Positions 3,305 through 39,746 of a DNA stretch of 64,000 nucleotides are shown here, in pieces. The notes beneath the pieces are model-generated. The model worked only from the letters and a program-made list of their open reading frames with translations. It ran no database searches and had not been told where the DNA came from. The DNA comes from Candidatus Omnitrophota bacterium (lineage in GTDB: Bacteria > Omnitrophota > Omnitrophia > Omnitrophales > JACROU01), in assembly GCA_029261035.1 (NCBI GenBank), contig JAJDCD010000012.1, forward strand, positions 6,958 through 70,957, written 5' to 3'. The translations under genes and the position numbers were made by a program. Positions within the stretch are counted from its first letter, which is position 1. Each line of letters opens with the position of its first letter.

Positions 3305-3311
3305 TAAAAAT

Positions 3312-18644: not shown

Positions 18645-18695
18645 CTGTGGTAATGCTGGATAATCTAAGCTCTAACTTATCCAATATTACCACAG
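18645..18695. repeat. 51-nt bipartite hairpin in the convergent intergenic region
   Basis: CTGTGGTAAT (18645-18654) pairs with ATTACCACAG (18686-18695). TGGATAA (18657-18663) pairs with TTATCCA (18677-18683). There is a 2x2 internal loop and a 13-nt apical loop. Confidence 0.6.
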
Positions 18696-18756
18696 CACTT
18701 GGACAACTCTAAAGAGTTGACCACAGACTCAACAGTACTACGACTATATTTTAGTT

Positions 18757-18826
18757 AAGAAAAGAAAAGCTTTGATTATGGGCCTAATTTAAATAGACAT
18801 AGGATTAAATGGACCATAATCAAAGC
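18757..18826 (-). terminator. putative terminator of the ykgJ-yqeY-yfcE-like unit
   Basis: A perfect 13-bp inverted repeat, GCTTTGATTATGG (18769-18781) with CCATAATCAAAGC (18814-18826). On the minus strand it is followed by TTTTCTTTTCTT. The 32-nt loop is large. Confidence 0.45.
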
Positions 18827-18958
18827 CATATTACAGGATTTATATAGCTATTTGAGGATAGAGGAAAAATAAGTATATAGTCCTATAATGTATCTTATGT
18901 TAACTTTACCATATAGTAAATGCATAAATAACGTAAAAACAGCCTTTAATACAAATCC

Positions 18959-19315
18959 CTAAACTTCATACTGCTTTTGAAGCTTTTTTAACCCTTCGCA
19001 ATAATCCAAGGAATCCTTAGTCCGCCAGGCAAACGGAAATTCTTTACACTGTTTTGGTTTAACTTCTTGAATCATGCATTGATTATCTTTCAAGAATATA
19101 CAACTATCATCTTCATTAGTTTTTAATGTTAATCGCGGTTTCATGATCAAATCGCAATAATGATCTAAGAAGAACTTATGATCTAAATTCAGATGTTTTG
19201 ATATGGTTTCAGACTCATCCAAACCTATGTAAACATAGCCTGGATTTCGACAACAATTACCACATTTCTGACACTCAAATTTATCAATATGCTTAAGGTA
19301 ACCGTACTTATCCAT
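18959..19315 (-). CDS. YkgJ-family cysteine-cluster protein
   Basis: CQKCGNCCRNPGYVYI plus downstream Cys residues, a CxxCxxCC pattern. Confidence 0.7.
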   Translation of the reverse strand: MDKYGYLKHIDKFECQKCGNCCRNPGYVYIGLDESETISKHLNLDHKFFLDHYCDLIMKPRLTLKTNEDDSCIFLKDNQCMIQEVKPKQCKEFPFAWRTKDSLDYCEGLKKLQKQYEV

Positions 19316-19761
19316 TAAGCCAATAAAGATGCTACGATCTGGTTAATAGCCTTTCCATCCGCTTTACCGCCAACTTCAGCCATAATCAGCTTCATAGCCT
19401 GTCCCATTTGAGCTTTAGTTTCTATATTATTGTCTTTTAGCACCTTTTCTACGATAGGTTTTAACTCATCATTAGACATTTGTTCCGGTTGATATACCTT
19501 TAAAATATCTAACTCATCTTGTTCTTTTTTAGCCAAGTCCTCACGGTTGGCCTTATTGTATTCTTCAATACTGTCTTTACGTTGTTTTATCTGCTTCACA
19601 ATCATTCTTAACACATCTTCATCTGAAGCTTTATCAAGCTTATTGTCAATAAGATGAGATTTTATTGCGGATTTCAACATTCTTAAGGTCTGTAATTTTA
19701 ATTCTGATTTAGCTTTCATTGCGTCGATCACATCTTTATTTATAAGTTCTTCTAATGTCAC
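19315..19761 (-). CDS. GatB/YqeY domain protein
   Basis: 148 aa. The N-terminus LEELINKDVIDAMKAKSELKLQTLRMLKSAIK and the C-terminal GGKADGKAINQIV are typical of YqeY. Confidence 0.85.
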   Translation of the reverse strand: MTLEELINKDVIDAMKAKSELKLQTLRMLKSAIKSHLIDNKLDKASDEDVLRMIVKQIKQRKDSIEEYNKANREDLAKKEQDELDILKVYQPEQMSNDELKPIVEKVLKDNNIETKAQMGQAMKLIMAEVGGKADGKAINQIVASLLA

Positions 19762-19782
19762 AGGATGCTCCTTTTGTTATAT

Positions 19783-20274
19783 TTAATAAACTTCTCCTAA
19801 TTCATGAATATCTGCATTACTTGTTTCTAAATCCAACAAAGCTACCGTTGGTTTTCCTGTATTCGTACCACAACCTTCGCCAGGATTAATAATTACAGCA
19901 CGGTTCATTTTCTCTATTCTTGGCTTATGCGTATTACCGCAAATGATGTAATCCACAACTTGACTTTCTTTATCCATATTAACCGTAGATTCATCGTGAA
20001 TAATGAGAAAAGATTTTTCTTCTAGAATTAAATAATACGGAGGTTCTTTGATAGATCCTCCAGAGATTTCACGGGGTCCCTTTGTCAAAGAATCCATATT
20101 ACCCAAAACAGCATAAAATAAAATTCCAGAATTAATAAATTCTTTAGCTGCTTCCTGTGTTGTAAAATCACCCGCATGAATAATTGCTTTCACATCATTC
20201 TTTTTGAAAAATTCTATCGCACTGTGTATTTCCAAAAATGCATCATGTGTGTCTGAGATAATTCCAATTTTCAT
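19783..20274 (-). CDS. YfcE/MJ0936-family metallophosphoesterase
   Basis: MKIGIISDTHD, HAGDF, GNMD and GNTHKP metal-binding motifs. Confidence 0.8.
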   Translation of the reverse strand: MKIGIISDTHDAFLEIHSAIEFFKKNDVKAIIHAGDFTTQEAAKEFINSGILFYAVLGNMDSLTKGPREISGGSIKEPPYYLILEEKSFLIIHDESTVNMDKESQVVDYIICGNTHKPRIEKMNRAVIINPGEGCGTNTGKPTVALLDLETSNADIHELGEVY

Positions 20275-20330
20275 TTTAAACTTTCTGGTAATTCATTTTG
20301 TTTTCTTTTAAATAAATCTTCGCTTTCAAA

Positions 20331-23057: not shown

Positions 23058-23072
23058 TCTTTATCACCTGTT

Positions 23073-24053
23073 TTAAGGAAGCTTTAAAAGAATCGTACTT
23101 CCTAACAATATTTCCAAAATCAAAAGCAGAATCGCTGGCCACAATAAATAAGGAAAGAGCTCGTTATAATTTGCATACTCCTTAACCTTAACTTCTGTTT
23201 TTTCTAATTCATCAATCTTTTTATAGATCTGTTCTAAACTACGCTCATCTCTTGCTCTAAAAAAAACTCCTCCTGTCATATCTGCTATTTGTTTTAACAT
23301 CTTTTCATCAATATCTACTTTTGCTTGAACATAACGTCTTCCGAAAAGAGGATCGTCCACAGGAAAAGGAACAAGACCTCCCCTGCCAATTCCAATAGTA
23401 TATATTTTAATGCCAAAACCTTTGGCTAGCTCAGCCGCCGTAACGGGATCAATGTTTCCAGAATTATTTTCACCGTCGGTAATTAATATGACAACCTTAC
23501 TTTTAGCATCGCTTTCCCTCAATCTATTGATTGCATTAGCTATAGAAAGGCCCACAGCTGTGCCATCTTTGATCATCCCAATCTTAACTTCGTCCATTAA
23601 AGAAACTAAAACATCATAATCTAATGTTAAAGGACATTGAGTGTAGCTTTGCCTTGCAAAAACAACTAAACCAATACGGTCATTCTTCCTTCCTTTTACA
23701 AATTTCTTAGCTTCTTCCTTTGCTACATAAAGACGGTTTTCAGGGGCAAAATCTTCAGCCTGCATTGAACCCGAAACATCCAGAGCTATAACAATATCAA
23801 TACCTTTTGTACTTAATTCTTTTTCACTTTCAATGGCCTGAGGACGAGATAAAGCGAGCACAATTAAAATCAACGTAATTATCCTCAACATCGAAAGAGC
23901 TCTTATAGGGTTCTGAGAACCGGCAATTTTAATCTTCTTGATCTCATTCAGAGTCGGAAACCTCAAACTACTACTTTTCTTTCGTATCGAAATAAAGTAC
24001 AAGAAAGGCAAAACGATTAAAAATATTAAAAATAAAGGCGATTCAAAATGCAT
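23073..24053 (-). CDS. BatA-like VWA-domain membrane protein
   Basis: Two N-terminal TM helices. MIDAS DIVIALDVSGSM. ILITDGENNSG. C-terminal TM helix. Confidence 0.85.
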   Translation of the reverse strand: MHFESPLFLIFLIVLPFLYFISIRKKSSSLRFPTLNEIKKIKIAGSQNPIRALSMLRIITLILIVLALSRPQAIESEKELSTKGIDIVIALDVSGSMQAEDFAPENRLYVAKEEAKKFVKGRKNDRIGLVVFARQSYTQCPLTLDYDVLVSLMDEVKIGMIKDGTAVGLSIANAINRLRESDAKSKVVILITDGENNSGNIDPVTAAELAKGFGIKIYTIGIGRGGLVPFPVDDPLFGRRYVQAKVDIDEKMLKQIADMTGGVFFRARDERSLEQIYKKIDELEKTEVKVKEYANYNELFPYLLWPAILLLILEILLGSTILLKLP

Positions 24054-25036
24054 TATCCAATCTCCTTTTCATTAATAACTTTCATTTTTTCTTCCCCATC
24101 TTTTTCTAAAGGCTCAGCTTCTCTCTCATATGTGTTTTCAATGATTTTCCAGGCCATCTTAAAGTCTTTTTGTATTTCTTCTGTTTGAGGGGTGTGTTTT
24201 GCGTATTTAACCATTTCCAAGGAATTAAAATATTCCATAATTAAACGGACATCTTCCTCAGATAAATTTAATCTCTTTATAGATTTAAATATTTCTAATT
24301 TCGTTTCCTCGATAGCATTAAATTTATATCTTTTTGAGAGGTACAATTTAATCACTTCGGATAAACCATAGTAGTAAGCCTTATGTTCTCCTCTAACCAA
24401 CATCCCACTATCTTTTATTCGATTGAGTGACTGAAAGGCTGCTTCATGAATCTTTAAAGGGGGTGTCTTAAAACGATCTAGAAGGTGAGGGTTTTTCCTT
24501 AAGAAAAAGAAAAGAAATATAAGGAAGAGAAAAAAAACAGCTCCGAAAATTATAAAAAAGAACTTCCAAAATTGAGAAGGTATTTCTGTAACCCCTTTAA
24601 TCCCTCGTATATCCTTCTTAACGGCACCCTTTTTATCAATGGAATGTACCGTGATATATAGTTTATTTGTTTTAATCTCTTTTTCTTTTCCGTCAATATC
24701 CTTAAAGCGAAGAGTTATTGGATCGATTACGTATTCACCCAACGTATAACTTGTTATTTCATAAGTTTTACCTTCAATGACCTGAGCTCCTTCTTTTCGA
24801 GGGGTAATATCAAGGGAAGACTTTATTTCAAAATTTTTTAACTTTTTTTGATCTAAAGAACTTAAAATCTCAATTTGCGGGTTTCTTTTAATTTCAATTC
24901 GATATTCTACTTTATCTCCTACGGTAATAAATGCTTTATTCACCGAAGCTTTAACAGAAATATCACCCACATCTTGAGAGTAAATTAATGGAGTCATTAG
25001 GGAAAACAATATTAAAAATAAAATCGACCGTCTCAA
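24053..25036 (-). CDS. BatD-like membrane protein (signal peptide, beta-rich ectodomain, TM helix, helical tail)
   Basis: Architecture only: signal peptide MRRSILFLILFSLMTPLIYSQ, a TM helix FFFIIFGAVFFLFLIFLFFFL, then a basic stretch. It lies inside the Bat-type operon. Confidence 0.5.
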   Translation of the reverse strand: MRRSILFLILFSLMTPLIYSQDVGDISVKASVNKAFITVGDKVEYRIEIKRNPQIEILSSLDQKKLKNFEIKSSLDITPRKEGAQVIEGKTYEITSYTLGEYVIDPITLRFKDIDGKEKEIKTNKLYITVHSIDKKGAVKKDIRGIKGVTEIPSQFWKFFFIIFGAVFFLFLIFLFFFLRKNPHLLDRFKTPPLKIHEAAFQSLNRIKDSGMLVRGEHKAYYYGLSEVIKLYLSKRYKFNAIEETKLEIFKSIKRLNLSEEDVRLIMEYFNSLEMVKYAKHTPQTEEIQKDFKMAWKIIENTYEREAEPLEKDGEEKMKVINEKEIG

Positions 25037-25074
25037 ATTATATCCTCTTCCTCATATAAGCTAACTCTAACAAT

Positions 25075-25959
25075 CTACTGCCTTCTTTTGCGAGCGTCTC
25101 TTTCTTTGAAAAATTTCATCAATGGATCTACATAAGATTCAGTAATATCTATTTCTATCTTATCCAATCCCGTCTTCTTAAATAGCTCGTCTATTTGGTC
25201 TAGATTTGCTTGAGTTTTCATGCAAAATTGTTTTTGAAATTTTTTACTTTGTGTATTTACAATTACCTCATCCCCTGTCTCCAAATCCTCTAATGCGAGA
25301 TAACCTATCTTAGGAATATCTCTTTCTCTTGGATCAAAAAGATGGACCCCAATAATGTCATGCTCTTTCCCTAAAATTTTTAGAGGCTTTTCGTAGTTTG
25401 AGTCTATGAAATCTGAAATTAAAAAGATAACTGCTTTTCGGGTTAGCACCTTATGCATGTATTCCAACACCATAGAAAGATCGGTTTTGTTATACTTAGG
25501 TTCATATGAGAGAATTTCTCGGACTACACGCAAAGCATGTTTTCGACCCTTCTTAATAGGAATGTATTTCTCAACTTGATCTGTAAAAAATATAAGTCCC
25601 ACTTTGTCGTTATTCTTCACAGCTGAAAAAGCGAGAAGCGCTGTGATCTCTGCTGCTATTTCAGATTTAAGCTTTTCACCCGAACCAAAAAAACAAGAGT
25701 ATGAAGCGTCAACAACAAAAAAAACAGTAAGTTCCCGTTCTTCAACAAACTGTTTTATATAAGCAGTTTCACTTCGCGCTGTTACATTCCAATCAATAGA
25801 ACGGATATCATCGCCAGGGACATATTCTCTAACGTCTGAGAATTCAATCCCCTGCCCCTTAAAAACAGACTCATATTCTCCTCCAAACAAATCATTAACT
25901 AAACGATTTGTTTTTATTTCAATGAGTTTTACTTTGCTTAATAGTTCTTTTGGTAACAA
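25075..25959 (-). CDS. DUF58-family protein (MoxR-associated)
   Basis: Motif DDIRSIDWNVTARS and a VWA-like core FFVVDASYS. It lies downstream of the MoxR ATPase, as in Bat operons. Confidence 0.85.
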   Translation of the reverse strand: MLPKELLSKVKLIEIKTNRLVNDLFGGEYESVFKGQGIEFSDVREYVPGDDIRSIDWNVTARSETAYIKQFVEERELTVFFVVDASYSCFFGSGEKLKSEIAAEITALLAFSAVKNNDKVGLIFFTDQVEKYIPIKKGRKHALRVVREILSYEPKYNKTDLSMVLEYMHKVLTRKAVIFLISDFIDSNYEKPLKILGKEHDIIGVHLFDPRERDIPKIGYLALEDLETGDEVIVNTQSKKFQKQFCMKTQANLDQIDELFKKTGLDKIEIDITESYVDPLMKFFKERDARKRRQ

Positions 25960-26074
25960 TTTAAGCTCCTTAAGGGACTGTCACTCATCTCCATTCAAAA
26001 TTTTAGCAATTAAGTTCTTAAAGTAAATTAATTTATATTTTGCATCTTCACTTTTTTGGCCCTGCCCTTTACCT

Positions 26075-26211
26075 AGGGGACACGCACTTTTGCCACAATT
26101 GCTGTCGCAATGGTTACAAAAGTCCATGTCCCCAACTTCGAGCTGTGCTAATTTGGGGACATGGATTTTTGATACTGTTGCTTGCAACTGTGTCAAAAAT
26201 GCGTGTCCCCT
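26075..26211. repeat. 137-nt nested inverted repeat (long imperfect hairpin) in the MoxR-DUF58 gap
   Basis: The outer arms AGGGGACACGCA (26075-26086) and TGCGTGTCCCCT (26200-26211) are perfect. The inner arms TCCATGTCCCCAA (26123-26135) and TTGGGGACATGGA (26153-26165) are perfect. The segments between them are largely complementary. Confidence 0.8.
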
Positions 26212-26231
26212 TCCTCAATATTAACCTTCTA

Positions 26232-27233
26232 CTACGGAACTTCTATTTGGTCGAATATTTTCTTAACAATATCTTCGGAAGTCATGTCTTCAGCTTCCGC
26301 CTCATACGTAATTAGGATACGGTGTCTTAGCACGTCCAATCCAATTTGCTTCACGTCTTCAGGTGTAACATAAGCTCTTCCTTTTAGAAAAGCATGAGCC
26401 TTTGAAGCTTTCGTTAACATAATACTTGCCCGAGGAGACCCTCCAACTGAGATTAAATTCTTTAATTCTTCCAATTTATATAATTCTGGATTACGCGTAG
26501 CAAAAACAATATCCAGAATATAATCTTTTATTTTTTCATCGATATAAATATCATTAACCAAACCTCTTAATCGAAGAATGTCTTTAGGATTAATCACTGC
26601 ATTTACATCAATTTCATCGCTTTTAGTAACTTTTTCAAGAATTAATTTTTCTTCTCTTTTATTGGGATAAGTAACGTTAAGTTTAAGCATAAATCGATCT
26701 ACTTGAGCTTCAGGTAGCGGATAGGTCCCCTCTTGCTCAATTGGATTTTGAGTTGCCAAAACTAAAAAAGGTTCTTCAAGCTTATATGTATTTTCACCAA
26801 TAGTAACTTGTCTTTCTTGCATCGCTTCCAGCAAAGCACTTTGCACTTTTGATGGAGCACGGTTAATTTCGTCAGCCAGAATGATATTGGAAAAAATAGG
26901 TCCCTTTTTAGTCGTAAAATTACCGTCTTTTGGGTTATAGACAAGAGTACCAATTAAATCTGCCGGCAAAAGATCTGGCGTAAACTGAATTCTTTGAAAT
27001 TTAGTGTCGATGGCTTGAGCCAAGGTATGAACAGATTTTGTTTTAGCAAGGCCCGGAAGACCTTCAATCAACACATGACCATTTGCCAAGATGCTGATAA
27101 GAAGTCTTTCTATCAGATACTCCTGCCCCACAATCACTTTATGAATCTCAGTGATGAGAGCTTCCACCAATTTGTGTTCATTTTTTACTTTTTCTGTAAT
27201 TTCTTTTATTACTGCTTCCATGACTACCTCCAT
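26232..27233 (-). CDS. MoxR-family AAA+ ATPase
   Basis: Walker A GLPGLAKT, Walker B and sensor region ILADEINRAPSKVQSALLEAMQERQVT, and ATQNPIEQEGTYPLPEAQVDRF. Confidence 0.92.
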   Translation of the reverse strand: MEVVMEAVIKEITEKVKNEHKLVEALITEIHKVIVGQEYLIERLLISILANGHVLIEGLPGLAKTKSVHTLAQAIDTKFQRIQFTPDLLPADLIGTLVYNPKDGNFTTKKGPIFSNIILADEINRAPSKVQSALLEAMQERQVTIGENTYKLEEPFLVLATQNPIEQEGTYPLPEAQVDRFMLKLNVTYPNKREEKLILEKVTKSDEIDVNAVINPKDILRLRGLVNDIYIDEKIKDYILDIVFATRNPELYKLEELKNLISVGGSPRASIMLTKASKAHAFLKGRAYVTPEDVKQIGLDVLRHRILITYEAEAEDMTSEDIVKKIFDQIEVP

Positions 27234-27264
27234 ATTCTATAGTTATTACGAATGAAAATTCATT

Positions 27265-28164
27265 TTAGTTTCTTGGTTCAAACTCACCTTTGGGTTCGTT
27301 AACCAGTTTTGATTCAAAAAATCGTTCTGACAATCTTTTAACTTCAGTGCTTTGTGCATATGTTAATTTAGTTTGAGAGTACTTACAGGATTCTAATTTT
27401 AATATTATTTCTAATAAAATATTTTTATCTTCGTCTGTCAAAGATTCACAGGACTGTATGTTGTTTTCATCCAAAACAATTAACTGATAGGTGTCACTCA
27501 GATATTTACTTATTTTTTTGGACAACAATTCCATAAACTCTGAAAATTGTCCATCTTCAAGCAAGCTACCCAATCTATTAATTTCATTTAAAACCTCTTG
27601 CTCTATACTAGGTTTTGAATCTTCAATTATCTTCTTCTTTTTTTTCTGTTCTTTAATAAAAAAAACGAGCATCAAAAGAAAAACCACAATTCCAGCAGAG
27701 GTTATCCATTTCCAAGGAATAACTAAGGGTGGTTTTCTAATAGATACATTTTGACCTGGGACTTCAATTTGACTCATAGAGCTCTTCCCCGTCTCTATGT
27801 ATTGAATAGGAAAGGAAGGAATAGTCACTTTGCCAGCTCTTGCTGCAATAAGTGTGAAATTAAAAATTCTTCTTTGAATTAACCAACCATTTTCAGTTTG
27901 AGCAGATTCAGACGATACCCCTGTGTTTTCAATTGTAAAACCTTCTATTTCTAATACGGGTGGAATAAATTTGACCTGATCTTCATTTCCTAACCATTCG
28001 ATGGAAACCTCTAAAATAGCCTTAGAACCAATAGTTGGCTCTTCGTCTTGAAACGTTATACTCTTATTAATGGTTAAGGATATAGGAGAATCTTCTTGAG
28101 CATATAAAGCATTGGCGGGTAATACAAAAAGGACAAGAACTGTAAAAATATAAATCCATTTCAT
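27265..28164 (-). CDS. BatD-like membrane protein (first gene of the Bat-type operon)
   Basis: Signal peptide MKWIYIFTVLVLFVLPANALYA, a beta-rich ectodomain, a TM helix AGIVVFLLMLVFFI followed by KEQKKKKK, and a helical tail. The architecture matches 24053-25036. Confidence 0.5.
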   Translation of the reverse strand: MKWIYIFTVLVLFVLPANALYAQEDSPISLTINKSITFQDEEPTIGSKAILEVSIEWLGNEDQVKFIPPVLEIEGFTIENTGVSSESAQTENGWLIQRRIFNFTLIAARAGKVTIPSFPIQYIETGKSSMSQIEVPGQNVSIRKPPLVIPWKWITSAGIVVFLLMLVFFIKEQKKKKKIIEDSKPSIEQEVLNEINRLGSLLEDGQFSEFMELLSKKISKYLSDTYQLIVLDENNIQSCESLTDEDKNILLEIILKLESCKYSQTKLTYAQSTEVKRLSERFFESKLVNEPKGEFEPRN

Positions 28165-28482: not shown

Positions 28483-31400
28483 TTAGGCAGCTGCTTGAAT
28501 GGCTTTCCAAGCATTGATGTCAGCAAGTAATGTATCCCAAAGAGCGGCTCCACCTGCTAATTCAATACCGGTATATATCTTGGTATCAAATTGCTTACGA
28601 CTGAAGTCCAGAAGTTTCTTAGCAAGCAAGGTAGCTGTTAAGTTGTGTTGTGTTGTATCGCCAGAAGAGACTTTAGCTAATAACAGTCCTCTTTGAGCCG
28701 TTACATCTCCAACAACCTCTTCAACACCCACAAGACCTGTCGGAACTTTCTGCAATTTAATTGTTTCATTTAGACTACGATCGAGATTCTCTGGAGCAGA
28801 AACAATCACTAAGTTATCTGGATAGAGACCATATTCAGCAATAGCCAGATCTCGAACCTCCGTTTTTAAGGCTGCTATTCGTTCAGCATTACCAGAAAAC
28901 CACAAGGTCAACTTTAATGCTTTATCCATACCTGCAAGCAAGACAAGTTCTTGTAAATCAGTAGCCACTGTCTTGTCTGTCACTTCTCTATGCACAAACA
29001 AGGCTCGTGATGTACTTGTATTTGCATCTGGAAGTACATTAAAGATTCGCCCCAATTCCTGAGTTGCCGTTGGTGTTAAGCGAATAACATCCGCACTCAA
29101 GATCGTATTATCTGCGATTTGAGCCAACTCAGCTGGAAGAGCAATATCGAAAGAAGTTAATACTTGTTCTTGAAGTTCTCTTCCGTACTCTTCTAAGACC
29201 AATGGTAGAGTTAAATCTCTTGGTCCTGTAAAAATTGTTTTAAACTCAGGAGTAACAAAGCTTGCAACCTGAGCTCCTAAACTTTTTGCTGCTGTTTGAG
29301 CTTCAACAATTACTCTTGTTTTATCGAGTACCTTAGAAGCATTCTCGATTATAGCTTCAGTTGCTATTGGTGTAACCACTTCAAGAGGTGAACTATTTTG
29401 TCTTATAGATTCCCCCACAAGAAAACCAACACGTTCACCTATGGATTCAACAATACTTGGCATATCTAATCCAAGTATCGTCGTAAATACACCAGAAACA
29501 CCACCCCCATTAATAACGTAGTCTACAGCCCACAGAATACCTGTGTCGAATAATTGCGCAGATAATTGACGTGCTTTATTAGCAACAAATTGTTCATTTG
29601 CAGCACCTGCAACAATTTTAATTCCAGCTTCACTCAATCTTGCAATAGTATCCTGATCCAAAATATATTTAATTGCTGTTGGACTAAATACAGATGCCGG
29701 AACATCATAAATCTGATCTGATTTTGCAAGCAAAGCAACACTTCCATTCTCAAGACTACCAAAATTAAATGTTGAAACATCTGGAATTGTAGGAACGTTG
29801 GAATAAGTTTCTTTGACAATAGCATGTTGACTATCAAGTTCACTCATAACGACAATAGCTCCCTCTTCTATCAAAGCTTTAACTAAAGGAGTTCCAACAC
29901 CACCCTGTCCGCCTTGAACAGCTATTATTTTACCTTCAAGAGTTACATCTTCACCAAATACTTTTTGAATAGAAGCCTTAATCCCATTAAAAACACCTCT
30001 TGCTGTCCAAGGAGATGCATTATCACCCCCAAGAGCAAGATCTTTGTGCCCTACAACGTGACTTGGGGAAGTTTCCCCTATCGTCAACAATAAGGGTAAT
30101 GGTGTATTCATGTCTTGTCCCACAAATGTCACTGGTATATTCTCTAAAACTCTACCAAGACTGAGATATGCATCTCTTAATTTTCCTCTTTCAACCTGAG
30201 AAAGGTTCTCAATTTTTTTATTTGGATCAAGACCATCTACCTGAATCATTGTCTTTGACCCGCCTAAAGGTAATAAATCGAGACCAATCATGGCATTCTT
30301 ACTTGTCATAGCTCGAGATAAAGTCAAAGCTGAAATCATTTGAGCTTCTCTAGAATCCCATTTTAATCGGCGAACACCTCCAATAGCACCAGACATCAAC
30401 CATTGTTCTGTTCCATATTTCTTATAAGGAAGTAAATGATGTAAACCAATAATAGCTGTATAACCAACACTCTCATTTCTAGCAATAACAAGTCCCACAT
30501 GACCTTCCCAAACATCACTTACATGAGAAGGTAAACTAGAAGGATCTGTTATTCTGGTTACCTTTGTTCCATCATTTAATGTCAGACCTTCTTCAGGAAT
30601 CAAATTCTCAACCCATTGACGTCCTAGTATTTGCATTTCCTTGAATGCTCCATCCCCCAAAGAATTTGCTATAGCAGATTCTAATTTAGATTGTTCATCA
30701 ATAATAAACGAAGGAACATTTTTAAGCTTTCCTAGAAAATCTCTTCTACCAGAAACTTCTTGTTCCCAATAACCAGAATCAACTGTAGTTGTAATGCTTA
30801 AAAGATCTGATGGATCAATATCCACCCCATCAAAATGAACACTCCCCTTTTTAGGGACAAGACCAACAGAAGTTTCAGTATAGTTATCAGCTCCACTAGC
30901 TCTCTCTAACGCCCAAAGAATAACTCGAAAGTTTTCCATAAACCCAGGCCAAATATAACTACCATCTTCGTTTTGTCTAAACCAATTAACATGAAAGAAA
31001 GCTGGAGCTTGCTCTCCAAGAGAACCAATCACTCTTAATTTATTTTCCATATCTGCTGCTTCTGTTTGAGAAAAGAAAGGACGATTTGCAAAAGGATCTC
31101 TTTTCATAACACCTTCTTCTCCAGCTGCTGCTGCTGTACCCATAACACCCATAACAGCACCATCATAGATACCTGATTCTATCGTAGGAAGCTGACGTAC
31201 TAAAAGTTCTCCTTCAGGAATACGACCACCCCAGAAGATTGCGCTAATACGAACACCCTTAGGATCTCTCCAGTGTTCTGACATGATTTCATCTTGAACA
31301 CGTTCTGCAGATGCTGCATAGCGTGCATTTGGATGAGCCCATTCTCTTGGCTCTAGCTTTTTGGACACTTTATTCTTTTGAAGTCGTTCTCCAGAAGACC

Positions 31401-34400
31401 AGTCAGCAATCTTTTCTCCGGTCCAATCTTCCCAACCTTCTAGATCTGGAGTTCCAACTTTAAGGGTTTCAGACCCTTCTATATATGTTTCTTCTCCAAA
31501 TGCCCATGCTTTGTAATGAGCTTTACTTTTAAATCCTGGAGGGAATTTGGTTTTATCTGTCCACCATACTTCATTTGTAATTGTGTTAATTGCAACATTG
31601 GTAAATATTGTCCCCGTGTTTGGACCAATGGCTACCATTGCTTTTGGTGTTTGCTCCGCATTCGTACCTTTTGCAACACCAAAATAACCATTCTCAGCAT
31701 TGGTTGCATAAAGCCCTTCACCTTCACGAGCACGTGCGAAAATAATGTCATCACTGACAACACGAACTTCGTACTTACCTTTAAGAGCATCTGGAACTTC
31801 GATCATAGCAAAATTCGTTTTCCCAGAAGCACTTGGCGCTGCATATGCTACATAATCAAGTTTTCCTGTTTCAAGATTCTTGATTTCAACCACAGCCATA
31901 TGCTCTGCTAACCAACCTTCTTTAATTGCACTCCAAGTTGCATAACGAAGTGCATGAAACTTTTTGTTTAATAGAGCATTCCCACCATAATTAGAGCCGT
32001 AAGACATAATCAACATTTCATCAGGAAAAATACCGTAATTCCTTAAATCGACACCATCTTCAGCTTCTTCAATAAACTCTTTTCTAGCATCGCCTTCAAG
32101 ACCCAACTCATTCGCTTCTTGTGTTGCTTTCTCATTCGCTTCTGCAATAAGAGAGTATATTTTATCTATATCACCAGGTTCATGAACACCACGAACAAAT
32201 TTTTCTTCATCACCTAGTTCTGCCAGAGCTACATTACCTACCTTAGCAAGTCTGAACATATTTAAAGCCACATATCGACTTGATGTTACCTGAACACCCA
32301 CCTGAGAAAGGTCAGAGCCAGCAGTTCCCATTAGATATGGAAGAACATACATTGTTTTGCCAGCCATAGAACCTTTTAACAGACCTTCCATAACTTCTTT
32401 CTTTTCTGCTGTTGGACTCCAGTTGTTATAGTGCCCTGCATCCTCTGGGTTTTCTGTTGCGACAAACGTCTTTTTAACAGAACGCGCCGTATCTTTTTTA
32501 TGAGAACGTGTGTAATAGTTACCATCTGCGAGTTTTGTTAATTCTCCTGCGGCAACAGCTTGCTCAAGTAAAGCAGCGTCATCTGATTCGTCTACAATCT
32601 GAATATCCGCAGCCCCTGTAAACTCAACCATTTCACGAATCCAGCTTTGCAACGCAACATTAGATAAAGTTGAAATCTTATCTTCAATTGCTGCACCTAA
32701 ACTAGAAGCTTCTGTTGTTGTTTGAGTCCAATCGTATACGCTCAAAGGAAAAGTATCATAAACAAAGTCATGAGCCTCCAAAGCTTTCTGAGCTAAAGTC
32801 AATCGACTTATATTTTGAATTGTTGCTTTTTCTGATACTTTCGCTTTGGCATTACTAAGTTTTTTAGTAACATTTTCACGAGAATCAAAAATTGCATCCA
32901 ACAAAGCATCTCTCTCAGAAGCATTCGATTCAATTACAGCTAGCAGCACACGCGAACCATAAGTAATCCATTCATCGTGAGTCAATTTTCTTTTTAATAT
33001 TTCCATAATGACAGGAGATTTGCTTTTATCAAAAGCCCCACCTGGATTATCATTAAAGTATTCAGTTACCGTCAAATCTCTTTCTTGTAACATTTCAAGA
33101 ATAAGTTCTTTAGTAACTTTTTCGCCATTTTTAACTTCTCTACCATCATGAAGAATTTGTCCACCTTCATCCAACTCGATACCATGAATTTCTAACAACT
33201 TAACCCAATGCCAGAAAATTTCATAAGTAGCAAAGTCGTTCATTAAACGTTTACCTGTAAATACGTGTTTACCCGCATCATTGGTAAGACGTTCTTTTTC
33301 CGTTTTATAATCATCAACAGCGGCTGCATTATTTCCATTCAACTGTTGGAACCCATACTCTGAAGCCATAAAAATTGCATAACGAATTCCATCTAGTGTT
33401 ACTTTACCAGTTGGAGTTGTGAATATTTTCGCATAAGCTTCTTCAGAGAATAACTCATCTAAATCTTTTTGAGTAACGATATAAGGAGTAATTCCTCCTG
33501 CATCAGAAACAAGTCCTAAGTTAATGAATTTTTGTCTTTCTTCTACAGATAAACCATCTACTAAAGCTTGCAAGTCTTCTCTAGTTGCTTGTAACGGTTT
33601 AGCGCCTGCCTCTACATATTTCGTGGATACAGTAGCAACCCAACTTTGACGATAGGCATCAAACTCAACTCCATCTATAACAAGAAGACCTGTTAATCGT
33701 TCACGGAGTTTATCTAAAAACATTGCTTGAACAGCACCGTCATTAGTAGCTTTCTTAGCCGCAGCAATCTCTTCCGTGTCTGTTGCTTTAATTGGAGTTT
33801 CCATTACAGCAGACATTCCACCGATCGGCATACCATTCTCCAGAGCACCCGTTTCACGATTTCCTGTTACTAGTACTGTAATTAAAGCATTCCTACGCGT
33901 GTATTCCGTCATAGAGGCTTCTGTCATACCAACGCTATTAGGATCAGGAAATACTTTTGAAGGGTCATCTTTAACCATCTCAAAACGCCCATTAATATAA
34001 TCCCAACGACCTACATTAGGTCCAATTAAGTTTTCTCTTAAAATCCAAAGAATTACTTCTTGCTGAGCAGCATAAGTCCCTCTTTCATTCAACATTTCTA
34101 TTTTTATAGAACCCCTTTCAAGACCTAGAGTTTCTTCAAATCGCTTAAGAATCTTAGAAATAATCAAAGCTTCTTCAGGAGATTCAATTTTAGGGACATA
34201 AAAGTAAACATTACTCTCATTTTCTTTTTGAGCATCATAGTTATTCAATAAATGGATTGTAAATGCTGCAATCGTCGCAGGAATATTTCTACCATCTAAA
34301 GTAATTTGTCTGTTTTTTAGATGAAGCCCAGGAACACGATGAAAAATGGTTGGCCATTGATCACGATCCACTTTGATACTATATTCTTTAGGTTCACCTT

Positions 34401-37400
34401 CTTTATTTTTCTTTGTAGGATGTTTGAACGCACGTCCTATCCAGGTACCCGATATCACTTCCTTAATATAAGTCCATGCTTGATAGAGTTTTTGTTGATA
34501 GTCATTACCCGCGTCCTCCCAGTCAAACATCCAAGACACAGCGCCTTTTAACCCTGCGTTAATAGCTCCCATCAACATACCCATATCATCGGCTGGCCCC
34601 GTTCCTTGCAGACCGGCTTTTAGAACTTCTGCTGGGACTGGCACTGTTGAGTTCATAACCCAACGATACTGAGAGTCTTTATTTATTAAACCTTCACGAA
34701 TTTGTTCAACCGTTAAAGTGTTTCCATCCGCGTCGGTCAATTCTTTTGAAGGGTCCGCAAAACCATAACCTTCACCCGAATCTCGTCGAGCTTTTCTAGC
34801 GTGTAGTTGCTTTCCAATTTCTAAACCAAATTCACGCGTCAACGATTCAATCGTTCCTTCTACATTTACCGTTCTGCCATTTACTTCTTTATCACCGAAA
34901 AGACCTGAAAAATCTTCAGCCAAATCTTCGCGAACTACAAGCCCTTCTGTTGTGGTATTTACATCAACATCAGATTTAGCAGAAAGATTAAATTGATTAG
35001 ATGTATCAACATCATTACCTTTTTCTCTTGAAGAGGCTGTTCCATTTGCTATTCTGTTAATAGATGCTAATTGAGCACCTCTCACTTCAGCACCTGCAGA
35101 ATTTTGATGTCTATTGGTGAAAGGAGATCCTATTTTCTGACCCACCTGCTGAACCATAGACACAAATGCATAAGCACCCACTTTAACTAATTCTCTCATT
35201 ACTCGATAAACGTTTAAATGAGCAACATGATCTTGAAAAATGGTTACGAATTGGAATGCAAAACCTTGCTTACCCATATCCGTACTAAAAGTTCTTAAAG
35301 CATCAACCATCGCCTGAACATCTTCAGGGTTGTCACCCCATGTATCCGGTTGACCCCAATCAAAATCTTTTGATTGCATTGCTTTTTTAATATTAGCTCT
35401 TTGCTCTAAGCTCAAAGCAGCATGCCAGTTATCAGGGTTATTCCAGTTAAAAGATGGAGATAAATTCACTGCCTTAAGTGGTTTAAAACCTAACTCTGGA
35501 TCATTGTCTACAATATCAGCAAACGCTTTTGCATTTTTTAAATCGGGTTCTTTTTGTTCCATCCACAAAATATCTGCTGCACGAGCTGCCATTCTCAAAC
35601 GGATCCCTGCATTTGTAACACCCAACGAGTTATCAATTTGAAAAAAACCTTCACTTGTTTGAGCTAACGTGTGATCCCAATAAATTTCAATATTAAAACT
35701 ATTTATTGCTAACTCTCTTAAATCCTGAAAATCCAAAGTAATCTCTAAAGGATTAGTAGCTTCGTTCCATGCCTCGACTTCACCGCTACGGCCAGCTTCC
35801 ACCAAAGCTCTTTCAACAGCTTGAGGATAAGTCATAACATCTGCTTCTTGAGCCCAAACATTAGTCAACCTAGAAGATGCCGCAACCTCCTCTTCCCAGC
35901 CGGAGACTTCCGCATCTAAGACTTCTTGAATTGTCCACTCTTTACCAGAAGCATCAACAACAACGTTATTTAAACGCACTCTAAAGTTCGGATCTTCTAG
36001 CTCAATAGCAAGTCTATTCGACCAAAGTTCATCCACATAAACAGGGTTTCCACCATACTTTGGAGTCAAACTTTCATTATGCTCTAAAAGCCTCTCTTTT
36101 TCTTCTCCTCTAATATTCCAAACCTCTCTAATAGAAGCCGCAATTTTGGGAAAATTAGCTTCGATTTCCGAAAGCCTAACTTCAGGGTCAACACCTCTGT
36201 TATATTCTTTTTTATGAGATAAACGAATCACATCTTTTAAAGAAGGTATTCCTTCAACTGTAGCACCTTTAATAAAGTAATGATCTTCAGCTGAATTATC
36301 ATCTTCAAGTAACTTTGCTCCTTCAGCATCACTGCGTGCAATAATTACCAAAGTTGAGCTTCGACGAATGGCTTCATAACGAATATCCCATAGACGCTTC
36401 ATAAACTCACCTAAAGAAGTCAACACTTTACCAGCCATATGACCACATTTTTTTTGTCCATGTGCTTGGTCTTCAATATGAATCGATGCTGATTTTGCAG
36501 CAATAAACAAAGAAGCTAATTGAGTCGGAGATTTATGAGCAGTATCTCCATCAGCGTAAATAGGAATTAATGCATTTAATAAAACATCATTCAAATTTTC
36601 AAGAACTCCAGCCACTGCTTTCTCTCTATTTGCCTTTAAGTTGTCACTAGAAAAGCCTACATAATTTTCTCGATTACTAATTAATTCAGAAATAAAGCCA
36701 TCCCCTAATTCTGTAGCAAAGTTTTCAAAATCTTCTCTAACTTCTATTGTAAATATATACTGTCTTGCTCTAACAGAATCGACAAACGAGCGAATCAATG
36801 CTGGCTTCATTTGCTCTAAAGATGCTTTGTTAGGAGCCCTTCTTAATATTTGGAATAAATTGGGAAAGAACTTTTTAGTTAGATCTCTAGACAAAGTTCT
36901 GAATTGATATTGTAAGTTTTTGTCCAAGTTAACTAAACCCGTGTAAATTTCTTTAACTTCATTTGGAACACTATCCAATTGGTACTGAGCTAAATCTGGC
37001 TCCCCCATATGATGCGATGTTTGCCAACCACTTAAATACAAAGCTTCTGCCCCTGCCTCAACAGCTGCTTTAGCTGTTACAGAATCCATCACACCACCGG
37101 TCGCTGCAAAAGTACCTTGCTCCGCATGCTTCATAACAAGATAATACAAAGAATCTGCTAATGCATTAGCTGTTTCTGGCACATCTAAAACGCTCCCTGC
37201 CAATCTGTGAAACTCTTCAGCAGTCCATTTCTTATCCTCTCTCATAAATTTAGCAATTCGACTAAATCGATCTTGAGCTAAGAATTTTTTAAAATGTGCT
37301 ACTGTGGGTTCAATTCTTTTAGCCTCTGGCAAAGCACCCAAACTATTGGCAGATACATTAACCACTTCATTAAAAACTGGAAATTCCGCCAACAGATCCT

Positions 37401-39195
37401 GCCCCTCAACAGAAAGTTGAATTCCAACTCTGTTATTCCAGGAAGAAAATTGTTTTCCCCAAGGACTTTCGTTAAGCGTAGTCTGAAGCCCTAAAATATC
37501 CCCAGCTTCTATAACTCCGCTACCAACCAAAGCTCTTCTAGCAGAAATGATGAATTCAGGAGCAACACCACCAAAGTAATCAACACCTAAAGCAACCAAT
37601 GCTTCTACAGAAGTTCCTCCAAAGAAAGGTGTTTCAATTGTTGAGTCCTTTAAACCATGGCTACTTGTCTTAAGGAATGAATGAACGTAAGTTTCTTGCC
37701 CTTCAACAGAATCAATTTGAGGAGCAATTAAAGAATAGTTCGATTTGTCTTCATAATAATTCTTAAAAGATTCAGAGTGAAACCCCCCTGTAATAATGGC
37801 TACATTCTTAGCTCTTCTAGATTCAATTAAAGAAGTAGCTTTATCAAACATACCTGAATCACGCTGAATAGCACCTTCGTAAAATTGCACCGATTTCCCG
37901 AATAGAGCTTTCACTTCTTCTAAATTCTCAATTTGTGTTTTCTTGACACGAGACAATGTATTGATTTCATGAATAATTCGACTAGGGTCTAAAGTGTTTC
38001 CTTTAGACTTCAATGCCTTATAGTCTTTTGGTGTTAACTGTAGCTCAAATAACCGGCTCAATAGTTCAAAGTTTAAAATCAGTTCCAACACCCTCTTCTG
38101 TTCTTTAGACTCTGTTAATTTATCTAAGATCTGAGCATTTAACTTCTCAGATTCATTAAACAACCTATCTCCAACCAACTCATTTTTCAAAAGAAAGTTT
38201 CCAACAAAAAATGAAACATTAGGATATACATCAAAATTAAAATTTGCTGGCAATTTCCTAACCACAGATTCCATCAACAGCGCAAGAGCACCCTCAGCAT
38301 CAGAATCAACAGAGTTAAAAAATGCTTTCAACTGTTTGTGCTCTTTAGCAGAAACAGTTTTGCGTGCAAGTTTTAAAAAAGCATTTTTTTCTTTGTGAAA
38401 CTGTTCTAAATTAAATTGATCTTGAAACTTTTGGAGTTTAAAAACTCTAAAAAGCATTGGCCAATCCAATTGCTGACCCGGTTGATCAAAATCAATATTT
38501 AAGATTTGATTCGCTTGTTTTTTTAAATTTTCTAATCTCTGAATAAATGTGATTTTCTTCTGGTCAAAGTCTTTTTTGTTTTTTAAACTAAGTCGAATAT
38601 CTGCATTCAACAAAGAAGACTTGAGGCCTTCTACCTTAGCTTTTATATTGGATAAAAACAAACTCGTCTTCTCTCTTTGAGATAATACAGCTACAAAGTC
38701 TTTTGAGTTACTCATATAAGATGCTTCATCTTCTATACCATAAGCTTTAACTTTAGGATTATTCATTAAGAATAATTCTGCTCCCTTAAGATAAGCTTTG
38801 CGAGTTAAATCATCTGCAATTTGTGCGTTGATTTTTTTATCACGAACAAACTGAAGCAGTTCAGGTTCTAACTCCGAAACGGAGCCTTCTAAAAGAAGTA
38901 AGTCTATTTTTTTGTTTTGATTTAAATAATTAAGAATGGATTCTATATTTTTTTGGGCTTGATAATTACCATGAGCTGTTTGAATATGAAATACATTTGT
39001 TTCATGTATTTTGGGTGTTTGATGCTGAATAACACCAAGCTCACGAGGTAATGTAAAATTTGAATTGTTAAGTGATACGGATGAAACTGTATTTAATTGC
39101 GTTAAACCTTGCGAATATCCAGTCCCTGAGAAAATAAAAGTTAATGCAACGAACAAGTTTATTGCCTTTAATCTAGCGAAGTAATTAAGAAACAT
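28483..39195 (-). CDS. giant multi-enzyme fusion protein: leader + TraB/GumN-like domain + isocitrate lyase + malate synthase + GTP-PEP carboxykinase + ELFV-type dehydrogenase + unknown C-terminal domain
   Basis: Uninterrupted 3,570-codon ORF in an AT-rich genome. AAGGAG lies 9 nt upstream of the ATG (39193-39195). Hallmark motifs of four enzyme families occur in series (see the domain entries). Confidence 0.9.
   Translation of the reverse strand: [3570 protein letters not shown]
28486..29274 (-). other. domain (aa ~3308-3570): C-terminal region of unknown function
   Basis: About 260 aa of non-low-complexity sequence after the dehydrogenase module. I recognised no motif. Confidence 0.5.
29311..30618 (-). 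other. domain (aa ~2860-3295): Glu/Leu/Phe/Val-dehydrogenase-like NAD(P) oxidoreductase
   Basis: [21 protein letters not shown] (Lys2981), [16 protein letters not shown], Rossmann motif [12 protein letters not shown] (aa 3090-3101), VAGAANEQ and [10 protein letters not shown]. The classical ELFV signature is only partly matched. Confidence 0.7.
30691..32667 (-). other. domain (aa ~2177-2835): GTP-dependent phosphoenolpyruvate carboxykinase
   Basis: [47 protein letters not shown], P-loop APSASGKTN (Lys2459), [20 protein letters not shown], and [25 protein letters not shown] (aa 2734-2758). Confidence 0.9.
32971..34878 (-). other. domain (aa ~1440-2075): malate synthase (A-type-like)
   Basis: FDWEDAG (aa 1557-1563), [32 protein letters not shown] (aa 1725-1733), and [13 protein letters not shown], where Asp1987 sits at the position of the catalytic base. 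Confidence 0.85.
35011..37278 (-). other. domain (aa ~640-1395): isocitrate lyase, long form with insertions
   Basis: YLSGWQ (aa 720-725), IYADGDTAH, the ICL signature KKCGHMAGK (aa 915-923, nt 36427-36453), [38 protein letters not shown] and [10 protein letters not shown] (aa 1362-1371). Confidence 0.9.
37711..39018 (-). other. domain (aa ~60-495): TraB/GumN/ChaN (Tiki-superfamily)-like, tentative
   Basis: [37 protein letters not shown] (TAH aa 73-75, Glu103) resembles the GTxH...E motif of this superfamily. [33 protein letters not shown]...YSLIAP (GGFH aa 470-473) resembles its C-terminal R-[ND]-x2-[MW]...VGxxH motif. This rests on pattern recall only. Confidence 0.35.
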
Positions 39196-39689
39196 ATGAT
39201 GAATCTCCTTTTCGAGGATTATTTTTTTGAAAGCAAAACAAGTTTGCTAGGGTATTTCTTTTGCTAAATTTAAATACATGTTTTGAAAGAACAAAACGAT
39301 AATTACGTTTTCCGCAATCCGTTGATTTTTTTCGAATTCATCCGTGAAGAGAGATCAAAATATAATAGAATTTCAGATAAAAGTCAATTTAATGTTGAAT
39401 GAAAAGAAAAAAAAATAATTAAAAAAGTAGTGTTAAAAACATTTAAGAATTTACTTTTCGATTCATTTCTCTCTTATTTTGAATATTGCTAAATTATTTA
39501 CATTAAAAAAATACTTATTAAATTTATTTATAATATTATTTATTAAGCTGATTTTAAAATACTTACATCATCCCCTATTATTTATAAGGAAGAAGTTCAA
39601 TAATTGATTGTAAAAATAGCATATCTATCATGAATATTAATTATAATAATAGAGGTAATTCAATATAGGATATATTTCTTAGGCAGGAA

Positions 39690-39726
39690 TAAAAAAATAA
39701 GGGAGCAGTGCAATAACCGCTCCCTT
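39690..39726 (-). terminator. Rho-independent terminator of dnaK
   Basis: The minus strand reads AAGGGAGC-GGTTATTGCACT-GCTCCCTT followed by ATTTTTTTT. It starts 21 nt after the dnaK stop. Confidence 0.8.
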
Positions 39727-39746
39727 ACCTTAAGCATTACTTAATA

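Follow-up and report, generated by a model that had tools for sequence, protein, structure and literature searches.

The 64-kb window analysed here (64,000 nucleotides of contig JAJDCD010000012.1) carries on its minus strand one giant gene, which is the subject of this report. A first-pass annotation had described it as a lone open reading frame (ORF) of 10,713 nt with AAGGAG 9 nt upstream of its ATG. Direct reading of the sequence bore out both points: the frame is open throughout and encodes 3,570 amino acids (aa), and the Shine-Dalgarno sequence lies where it had been placed. A 10.7-kb open frame cannot have arisen by chance in DNA of 34–40% GC. Four enzyme families had been claimed in series along the chain, namely isocitrate lyase (ICL), malate synthase (MS), GTP-dependent phosphoenolpyruvate carboxykinase (PEPCK) and an ELFV-type dehydrogenase (DH), and all four were recovered in that order and within the claimed limits by profile searches against Pfam and NCBIfam and by phmmer searches of the PDB (Table 1). 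We are highly confident in the fused ORF and in the assignment of its four domains.

Table 1. Features of the giant gene and of the region upstream of it (window coordinates)
Feature	Residues	Coordinates	Strand	Basis
Whole giant gene, 3,570 aa + stop	1-3570	28483..39195	minus	single uninterrupted ORF, ATG start
Signal-peptide-like N-terminus	1-30	39106..39195	minus	hydropathy and inspection
N-domain	~40-560	37516..39078	minus	predicted model, fold comparison
Junction motif 1, ANSLG, N-domain to ICL	616-620	37336..37350	minus	motif scan
Isocitrate lyase domain	~640-1395	35011..37278	minus	Pfam, NCBIfam, PDB phmmer, motifs
Codon of Cys917, the sole cysteine	917	36445..36447	minus	composition count
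Malate synthase A-type domain	~1440-2150	32746..34878	minus	Pfam, NCBIfam, PDB alignment, motifs
Junction motif 2, ASSLG, MS to PEPCK	2163-2167	32695..32709	minus	motif scan
GTP-dependent PEPCK	~2172-2840	30676..32682	minus	Pfam, NCBIfam above equivalog cut-off, PDB phmmer
Junction motif 3, ANSLG, PEPCK to DH	2843-2847	30655..30669	minus	motif scan
Leu/Phe/Trp-dehydrogenase-like (ELFV) domain	~2872-3290	29326..30582	minus	Pfam, NCBIfam, PDB alignment, motifs
Junction motif 4, AKSLG, DH to C-domain	3303-3307	29275..29289	minus	motif scan
Conserved C-terminal domain	3308-3570	28486..29274	minus	identity to L019 and P0030
Shine-Dalgarno AAGGAG, ATG 9 nt downstream		39205..39210	minus	sequence read directly
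Terminator-like hairpin after dnaK, 16 pairs + T run		39694..39731	minus	consensus scan only

The ICL module contains insertions and belongs to the long, eukaryote/ICL2-like type. It matched Pfam ICL with 204 bits in four stretches, against 39 bits for PEP_mutase, and in the PDB it was far closer to long eukaryote/ICL2-type ICLs (2e-47) than to methylisocitrate lyase (8e-9). The catalytic loop KKCGHMAGK (915–923, with KKCGH at 915–919), a motif kept in all relatives, and the ICL-specific succinate-site motif NLSPSFNW (1244–1251) are both present, as are YLSGWQ (720–725) and RHQNSAGAEV (1362–1371). The score against the curated equivalog model TIGR01346 was 229 bits, below its cut-off of 275.9 bits, and here too the match fell into 4 stretches split by insertions. 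Judged from its sequence, the module is an ICL-family domain short of equivalog status.

The MS module matched Pfam MS_TIM-barrel with 112 bits and malate synthase A in the PDB with 5e-27, and it reached 128 of the 594.5 bits set as the equivalog cut-off of TIGR01344. It belongs to a divergent subfamily (RVPGLHL, LMNDFATYEI) that is shared with stand-alone genes in metagenome-assembled genomes (MAGs) of Acidobacteria, Verrucomicrobia and Lindowbacteria. FDWEDAG (1557–1563) and GPNVGRWDY (1725–1733) are in place and the catalytic and Mg-binding set is kept: Arg1620 (RVPGLHL), Glu1704 (MLNERG), Asp1732 (GRWDY) and Asp1987 (PDB alignment), which we take to be the counterparts of R166/E250/D278/D447 of E. 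coli malate synthase A, a numbering cross-checked via alignment offsets. Loss of the catalytic arginine, as RVPGLHL in place of RVRGLHL might suggest, was considered and rejected, since the alignment offsets put this residue at the conserved first Arg; the Pro replacing the second Arg of E. coli is common to the whole subfamily, stand-alone genes included.

PEPCK matched Pfam PEPCK_N with 186 bits and PEPCK_GTP with 306 bits, and it exceeded its equivalog cut-off (NF003253, 524 versus 504 bits, residues 2172–2844). Its best PDB match was 5i67_A (5e-97), with which it shares an identical P-loop, APSASGKTN (2453–2461, including Lys2459). The guanine-binding FxVNWFR region is present as FHVNWFR, within residues 2734–2758, and the domain contains an insertion of ~70 aa. 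The DH scored 38.5 bits with Pfam ELFV_dehydrog (cut-off 23.4), and leucine dehydrogenase (LeuDH) was found in the PDB with 3e-27. None of the NCBIfam models reached an equivalog cut-off, the best being Trp_DH_ScyB with 106 against 600 bits. The catalytic Lys/Lys/Asp of the amino-acid dehydrogenases is present (MTSK2966NA, GGSK2981 and GQD3028MNT) and aligns with the LeuDH structures 8hpe and 6acf (LeuDH K68, K80 and D115); the Rossmann motif GGQGGVG occupies residues 3095–3101 and the pocket residues are LeuDH-like. We rejected the idea that this domain could be the malate dehydrogenase (MDH) missing from the chain, on the strength of the alignment with LeuDH and tryptophan dehydrogenase (TrpDH) and of the amino-acid-dehydrogenase catalytic residues. 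Neither Pfam nor NCBIfam revealed any domain of the lactate/malate dehydrogenase or malic enzyme families in the 3,570 aa, or in the scanned relatives. The motifs quoted in the first-pass annotation all lie at the residue numbers given there, and its view that the catalytic residues are intact, and the protein no decayed relic, stood for ICL, MS, PEPCK and DH alike. All four modules look catalytically competent from their sequences.

Protein ends, cysteine content and junction pentapeptide

Residues 1–30 (MFLNYFARLKAINLFVALTFIFSGTGYSQG) resemble a signal peptide: the n-region is positively charged, the hydrophobic core spans 12 residues, and positions −3 and −1 hold small residues (G-Y-S). No other transmembrane (TM)-like segment was found in the protein by hydropathy. 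Starts of the same kind occur in nearly all complete giants of the family described below, including those without an N-domain. The N-domain itself has, in the predicted model, an alpha/beta core with a large helical insert, and its conserved residues are His75, Gln81, Glu103 and Gly-Gly-x-His473. Fold comparison suggests that it is probably a hydrolase-like member of the EreA/ChaN/Tiki/TraB superfamily, and its structural neighbours include the effector or toxin domains HopBA1, RRSP and PMT; a Foldseek search of the model against the PDB gave no significant match. The N-terminal 640 aa, searched as a single sequence, matched no homologue; homologues surfaced only with a profile built from 4 sequences. 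Among the proteins headed by the N-domain are some with beta-helix passengers, which are typical of secreted proteins (P0026). The C-terminal domain (C-domain) is 41–42% identical to the C-termini of L019 and of the orthologue P0030. It had no match in Pfam or in the PDB (phmmer at E<=10 returned only noise), and Pfam at E<=1 gave nothing usable for either terminal region. A cysteine protease of the CPD type was considered for the C-domain and rejected, as the domain is without any cysteine.

The whole protein is, in fact, nearly free of cysteine: exactly one is found in 3,570 residues, and this is Cys917, the catalytic residue in KKCGH of ICL. The other 46 ORFs of the window contain 0.67% cysteine, from which ~24 would be expected in the giant protein, and the Poisson probability of one or fewer was estimated at ~1e-9. 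Selection has kept no cysteine but this catalytic one. The other giants of the family are likewise poor in cysteine (P0029, 0 in 4,177 residues; P0035, 1 in 5,945; P0177, 3 in 6,752; P0030, 2 in 3,052; L010, 2 in 6,139; L008, 4 in 6,893; L013, 0 in 2,704; L015, 1 in 3,259). The median for stand-alone PEPCKs is 1.7%, and for ICL and MS of the same subfamily that are encoded on their own the range is 0.14–1.0%. Those proteins of the window that are likely to be exported, namely the secretin, BatB and the BatD-like protein, are Cys-free as well, and cysteine avoidance by exported proteins is known in some bacteria (PMC2823432).

Of the five junctions between modules of the giant protein, four carry the pentapeptide A-x-S-L-G. 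The pattern [AS][ASNKQ]SLG occurs in it four times, at junctions only, and is absent from the 17,603 aa of the other window ORFs; none of 20,000 shuffles of the giant protein contained four matches. Motif 1 (aa 616) sits in a low-confidence, unstructured linker of the predicted model. The orthologue P0030 has the motif at its N-to-ICL, ICL-to-MS and MS-to-PEPCK junctions and again after PEPCK, P0006 has it at the N-to-ICL junction, and P0177 (6,752 aa) contains about eleven copies. In a fusion of the N-domain to AceK (L021) it follows the N-domain and recurs near the C-terminus. The stand-alone PEPCK and DH representatives gave one match in 63,678 aa. At position −3, all 24 junction sites have Ala or Gly, and at position −1 every one has Ser. 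With these small residues ahead of Leu-Gly the pentapeptide is similar to signal-peptidase sites; if the cut is taken as Ser-Leu↓Gly, it is reminiscent of the sites at a leucine followed by a small residue that are cut in MARTX and large clostridial toxins. The pentapeptides most likely mark proteolytic processing sites, which would make the protein a polyprotein. The first-pass annotation had considered that the protein may be processed into parts, a suggestion that gains support from the motif at four of the five junctions.

Relatives and integrity of the gene

Gene order at the locus is shared with an Omnitrophota MAG, GCA_016214265.1, in which trpEGDC, a histidine kinase, a sigma54 response regulator and DnaK are likewise followed by an N-domain-ICL gene. 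The flanking genes are 57–78% identical, with DnaK at 78%. On the basis of this synteny and identity we infer that the gene belongs to an Omnitrophota-related bacterium. The orthologue in GCA_016214265.1 is split over two contigs, and on the second of these the end of MS runs straight into a homologue of the C-domain; the core architecture is therefore N-ICL-MS-C, and PEPCK-DH in the window protein is an in-frame insertion between MS and the C-domain. In L021, an independent assembly of run SRR7811943, P0030 is one complete ORF of 3,052 aa with the order N-ICL-MS-PEPCK-C, followed, as in the window, by BatD, MoxR, DUF58 and BatA genes; MoxR is 84%, DUF58 76% and BatA 73% identical. Directly upstream of P0030 lies a gene (23–3520 of L021) whose product of 1,165 aa consists of the same signal peptide and N-domain followed by AceK, a kinase/phosphatase of isocitrate dehydrogenase. 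The neighbourhood is thus aceBAK-like, with the leader domain on every member.

An exhaustive HMMER search of 1.84 billion representatives was made with the PEPCK-DH region as the query. No other protein with PEPCK directly followed by DH was found among them, and the 90% cluster of the window protein has one member. The protein belongs, however, to a mosaic family of signal-peptide-led, nearly Cys-free giants in which enzyme sets and orders vary, and it is not one of a kind. L010 (6,139 aa) and L008 (at least 6,893 aa), from 'Elusimicrobia' MAGs, combine the N-domain with TM-like segments, DH, class I FBPase, ~1,600 unassigned residues, MS and ICL. Other architectures are MS-ICL-FBPase(glpX) in L015, DH-MS in L013 (Omnitrophota), PEPCK, MS, class I aldolase and ICL in P0039, PGI-PEPCK in P0061, and in P0029 a pyridoxal-phosphate enzyme (PALP), two DHs, a methyltransferase, a PGM-like domain, PEPCK and TIM. 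The enzymes shuffled across the giants are ICL, MS, PEPCK, FBPase, aldolase, TIM, PGM-like, PGI and amino-acid-deaminating domains. MS and ICL of the same subfamilies (~50% identical) are encoded by separate adjacent genes in Verrucomicrobia, Lindowbacteria and Acidobacteria MAGs.

Three observations on individual relatives were made in passing. The open frame of 6,139 aa in L010 ('Elusimicrobia bacterium RIFCSPLOWO2_02_FULL_39_32') is also that of L009 ('Candidatus Nanoarchaeia archaeon', DATDTA010000086.1), with identical motif positions and with equal locus length, GC, match identity and E-value, and one of the two taxonomic labels is probably a binning error. L008 (open frame 1–20679) has an identical 19-residue hydrophobic segment, GFTFSEFIPALTVFFAAVV, at aa 2284 and again ~1,200 aa further on, at aa 3492, and this repetition points to a recent duplication, within the giant, of a module that contains a TM segment. 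The closest MAG relative, L020, shows a change of frame (13579–13642) in the C-terminal part of ICL, with ~60 residues missing, and its gene was split by the gene caller into two overlapping ones; the cause is an indel in the assembly or else pseudogenisation.

The giant frame could in principle be an artefact of assembly or annotation, with an operon of the aceA-aceB-pckA-ldh type, or pieces of different genomes, joined in one frame. The frame break within the ICL region of L020 speaks for this, as does the existence of ICL and MS of the same subfamily as separate adjacent ORFs in several other phyla. We nevertheless give this explanation hardly any credence. At the syntenic position of an independent assembly, N-ICL-MS-PEPCK-C forms one ORF, and the PEPCK-DH block of the window is flanked in frame, on both sides, by segments that are contiguous in a relative. 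GC content at third codon positions (GC3) is 0.19–0.28 in every module, even across the protein and in line with the adjacent genes, and codon usage is likewise uniform; both match the genome of the window, whereas the relatives have 42–66% GC. In addition, the linker motif of the family is found at four of the five window junctions, and giants of 3,000 to more than 6,800 aa recur in many assemblies. A mis-join is very unlikely, and PEPCK-DH as a chimeric misassembly was rejected on the in-frame flanks, the L021 orthologue and the uniform GC3.

Bifunctional proteins with ICL and MS on one polypeptide, as in the window protein, are nematode ICL-1/GEI-7, the MS-ICL of Euglena and a fusion in Anaeromyxobacter dehalogenans that was noted in 2006 (PMC1630690). 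Both orders of the two enzymes occur among these, as among the relatives of the window protein. In contrast to the 3,570-aa giant, they comprise two enzymes in ~1,000 aa, are cytosolic or glyoxysomal and have no signal peptide, N-domain, PEPCK or DH, junction motif or reported cysteine depletion; the window protein differs from them also in its long eukaryote/ICL2-like ICL and its divergent MS subfamily. Giant genes of Omnitrophota were described in 2023, in a preprint with the remark that peptidase domains, located N-terminally close to signal peptides, 'might cleave the giant proteins' (bioRxiv 10.1101/2023.11.21.568195). According to the main text of a preprint of June 2026 (bioRxiv 10.64898/2026.06.07.730766), Omnitrophota proteins of at least 10,000 aa include a 'multi-enzyme metabolic cluster' class, and 94% of the long Omnitrophota proteins have a signal peptide or TM helices. 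This multi-enzyme class has in common with the window protein the lineage (by synteny), the tiling of one chain with unrelated enzyme Pfams and the presence of signal peptides or TM helices. In contrast, the catalogues begin at 10,000 aa and place emphasis on sugar, kinase and regulatory domains, and the window protein has 3,570 aa and no internal TM segment. With four enzyme families and a signal-peptide-like start, although with its 3,570 aa under the threshold of at least 10,000 aa, the giant protein may be placed, as a variant, among the recently recognised multi-enzyme long proteins of Omnitrophota.

Term matches in the main texts of the two preprints revealed no fusions of ICL, malate synthase or carboxykinase and no cysteine depletion. 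The main text of the 2026 preprint gave no relevant match to ChaN-type domains, and Tiki-type domains and the junction motif were not searched for in either; further literature searches found nothing closer. The first-pass annotation had been aware of no described protein with PEPCK and a dehydrogenase in addition to ICL and MS, and of no bacterial example of this size. The exact set ICL-MS-PEPCK-DH is so far without a second example, yet co-linear relatives such as P0030 exist, a bacterial ICL-MS fusion was noted in 2006, and 'multi-enzyme' Omnitrophota giants are the subject of the 2026 preprint. What is new is the four-enzyme combination, unique so far, together with the leader domain, the junction motif and the exclusion of cysteine.

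Function and site of action

The explanation that we prefer, and hold to be moderately likely, is that the giant protein is a Sec-targeted multi-enzyme precursor, probably cut at the junction motifs. One chain would carry a Sec-type signal peptide, the EreA/ChaN/Tiki-like N-domain, ICL, MS, GTP-PEPCK, the LeuDH-like DH and the C-domain. ICL, MS and PEPCK belong to the route from C2 units to phosphoenolpyruvate (PEP), and DH to amino-acid deamination: ICL would split isocitrate, MS would condense glyoxylate and acetyl-CoA to malate, MDH would be supplied separately, PEPCK would turn oxaloacetate into PEP, and DH would deaminate a hydrophobic amino acid. The A-x-S-L-G sites would be cut proteolytically, and the N-domain hydrolase may be proposed, as a speculation, as the protease for these cuts. 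The fusion most likely serves co-expression, co-targeting and a fixed stoichiometry rather than ordered channelling, which is an unlikely selective reason because the relatives vary module order and content freely and non-consecutive steps are joined. The signal peptide, the exclusion of cysteine and the relatives of the N-domain point outside the cytoplasm. For the site of action, we regard an extracytoplasmic location as about as likely as not, the producer's own cytoplasm or the face of its inner membrane as somewhat less probable, and anything else as improbable.

The first-pass annotation had proposed that the protein could be a tethered assembly line from acetyl-CoA and isocitrate to PEP. 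The corresponding explanation is an uncleaved cytoplasmic metabolon in which isocitrate and acetyl-CoA are channelled to PEP via malate and oxaloacetate. In its favour, ICL, MS and PEPCK stand in pathway order, the enzymes depend on cofactors of the cytoplasm, and an AceK gene adjoins the orthologue in L021, as in aceBAK operons. Isocitrate dehydrogenase (IDH) and MDH are listed in the main text of the 2026 preprint for ~94% of complete Omnitrophota genomes (and citrate synthase for only 21 of 176), so that the missing steps could be supplied in trans. The assembly line is, however, not contiguous: DH is of the LeuDH/TrpDH type, and the step from malate to oxaloacetate has no module. Ordered channelling is further at odds with the shuffled order and content of the modules in relatives (MS-ICL; PEPCK-MS-aldolase-ICL; DH-FBPase...MS-ICL). 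A cytoplasmic metabolon would also leave unexplained the features of an exported protein, that is, the conserved signal-peptide-like N-termini with their positive n-regions, the EreA/ChaN/Tiki-like domain and the near-total loss of cysteine, which has no cytoplasmic rationale, the other cytoplasmic proteins of the window having normal cysteine contents. Nor does it account for the conserved junction pentapeptide. We consider it unlikely. The pentafunctional AROM protein offers an analogy insofar as several enzymes of one route share a chain, with fixed stoichiometry and co-regulation, and the same would apply here. AROM, in contrast, is a cytosolic protein whose enzymes catalyse successive steps and whose order is conserved, whereas the window protein lacks MDH, varies in order among its relatives and has export-type features.

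Several points weigh against the Sec-targeted precursor as well. Acetyl-CoA, GTP and NAD(P) are needed, or ATP and IDH in the case of the AceK fusion, and these requirements fit poorly with periplasmic export. The signal peptide was judged only by hydropathy, charge and the −3/−1 rule, by eye. Relatives of the L010 type have many TM-like segments, and the topology of L008 and L010 is ambiguous by hydropathy. The junction pattern was defined after the motif had been seen, and was later confirmed on other proteins; the motif is missing from the ICL-to-MS junction of the window protein, which has lost it, and from giants of the L010, P0029 and P0039 types. ICL and MS lie far under the NCBIfam equivalog cut-offs, and both the frame and the processing are predicted from the sequence. 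Two readings remain as to where the enzymes would act, self-use at the membrane or after processing, and action in the cytoplasm of another cell.

The latter is a more specific version of the precursor reading, in which the protein would be a metabolic effector polyprotein directed at a host or prey. It would be exported by Sec, delivered and cut at A-x-S-L-G, possibly by the Tiki-like N-domain, into active ICL-MS, PEPCK and DH. These would reroute the tricarboxylic-acid-cycle carbon and amino acids of the victim to PEP and sugars for the Omnitrophota cell, and the N-domain-AceK sister protein would switch off the isocitrate dehydrogenase of the host. Only action in another cell's cytoplasm reconciles the signal peptide and the exclusion of cysteine with enzymes that depend on cofactors. 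AceK is fused to the same leader domain, and a periplasmic substrate for AceK is inconceivable. The fold neighbours HopBA1, RRSP and PMT, the beta-helix proteins typical of secretion that the N-domain heads (P0026) and the portrayal of Omnitrophota in papers as ultra-small predators or host-dependent cells are consistent with such a role.

The likeness of the S-L-G junction to the cut sites of MARTX and clostridial toxins adds an analogy: these toxins are giant precursors with serial modules, whose short linkers are cut at Leu plus a small residue, and the fold neighbours of the N-domain include the MARTX effector RRSP and PMT. In contrast to them, the window protein has no RTX or glucosyltransferase repeats, has a Sec-type signal rather than that of a type I secretion system (T1SS) and is made up of housekeeping enzymes. 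No C80 cysteine protease, repeat or T1SS match was found by Pfam, and the sole cysteine lies in ICL; a protease domain of the CPD type is likewise absent, the C-domain being Cys-free. The effector scheme moreover rests wholly on inference from sequence, with a hypothetical translocation apparatus and a hypothetical host. The many TM segments of L010-type relatives suggest residence in the membrane and not release, and the fused enzymes fill gaps in the reported core metabolism of Omnitrophota, which makes self-use plausible. We therefore regard delivery into another cell as possible but doubtful.

The enzyme-like modules could also serve a surface protein as scaffold or binding domains without catalytic activity. 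This would agree with the distance of ICL and MS from their equivalog cut-offs, the large insertions in ICL and PEPCK and a signal-peptide-led architecture that resembles giant surface proteins. All checked catalytic and metal-binding residues are, however, retained in ICL, MS, PEPCK and DH, the sole cysteine kept among 3,570 residues is a catalytic one, and the MS and ICL subfamilies are ~50% identical across phyla, stand-alone genes included. A scaffold is highly improbable.

If the protein is real and active, it extends fusions of central-carbon enzymes from two (ICL-MS) to four per chain and reveals a family that shuffles enzymes of the glyoxylate shunt, gluconeogenesis and amino-acid deamination. 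A secretion signal, an almost complete lack of cysteine, a conserved junction motif and cytoplasmic enzymes that depend on cofactors meet here in one protein, which leaves two testable alternatives: the giants use signal peptides and cysteine avoidance for something other than export, or housekeeping metabolic enzymes are put to work by bacteria beyond the cytoplasm of the producing cell. Were the effector version of the precursor reading true, it would define a new class of bacterial effector built of housekeeping central-carbon enzymes, and it would explain the signal-peptide lead and Cys-free composition throughout the family. Annotation by KO or equivalog models misses divergent embedded ICL and MS, and the metabolism of these candidate phyla may have been reconstructed wrongly. 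In the main text of the 2026 preprint, the ICL and aceB KOs are found in 0 of 176 complete Omnitrophota genomes (bioRxiv 10.64898/2026.06.07.730766), probably because divergent, embedded domains score too low for the KO thresholds, as ICL and MS here do for the NCBIfam cut-offs. For proteomics and mutagenesis, the A-x-S-L-G sites and the one catalytic cysteine that is left offer direct handles.

Surroundings of the gene and other features of the window

Upstream of the giant gene lie dnaK, the sigma54 response regulator, the histidine kinase and trp genes, all ordinary bacterial genes. The terminator-like hairpin after dnaK would leave the giant gene with an upstream region of its own of ~550 bp (39196..39746). 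A scan for sigma-70-type promoters found sites no more often than in shuffled sequence, and scans of the 64-kb window for tRNAs and Rfam families found no feature. Directly downstream of the giant gene, a BatD/MoxR/DUF58/BatD-like/BatA/BatB(TPR) operon occupies 20331–28164 on the minus strand, and this adjacency is the one kept in L021. Within the PEPCK-coding region, a plus-strand ORF of 131 aa (31516–31911) runs antisense and is probably a chance ORF.

On the plus strand, a cluster like those for type IV pili and secretins extends from 1734 to 6407 and includes several small membrane ORFs. It starts with a pilin-like ORF with an N-terminal hydrophobic helix (1734–2171) and contains the Cys-free secretin (4971–6407; Pfam Secretin, Secretin_N and STN). 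The GC skew flips from positive to negative at ~16000–19800, and gene orientation turns from plus to minus, convergently, at ~18.5–19.3 kb; together the two look like a replication terminus. At 20001–22000, within the BatB/TPR gene, the AT skew is −0.375, far beyond the range in the rest of the window.

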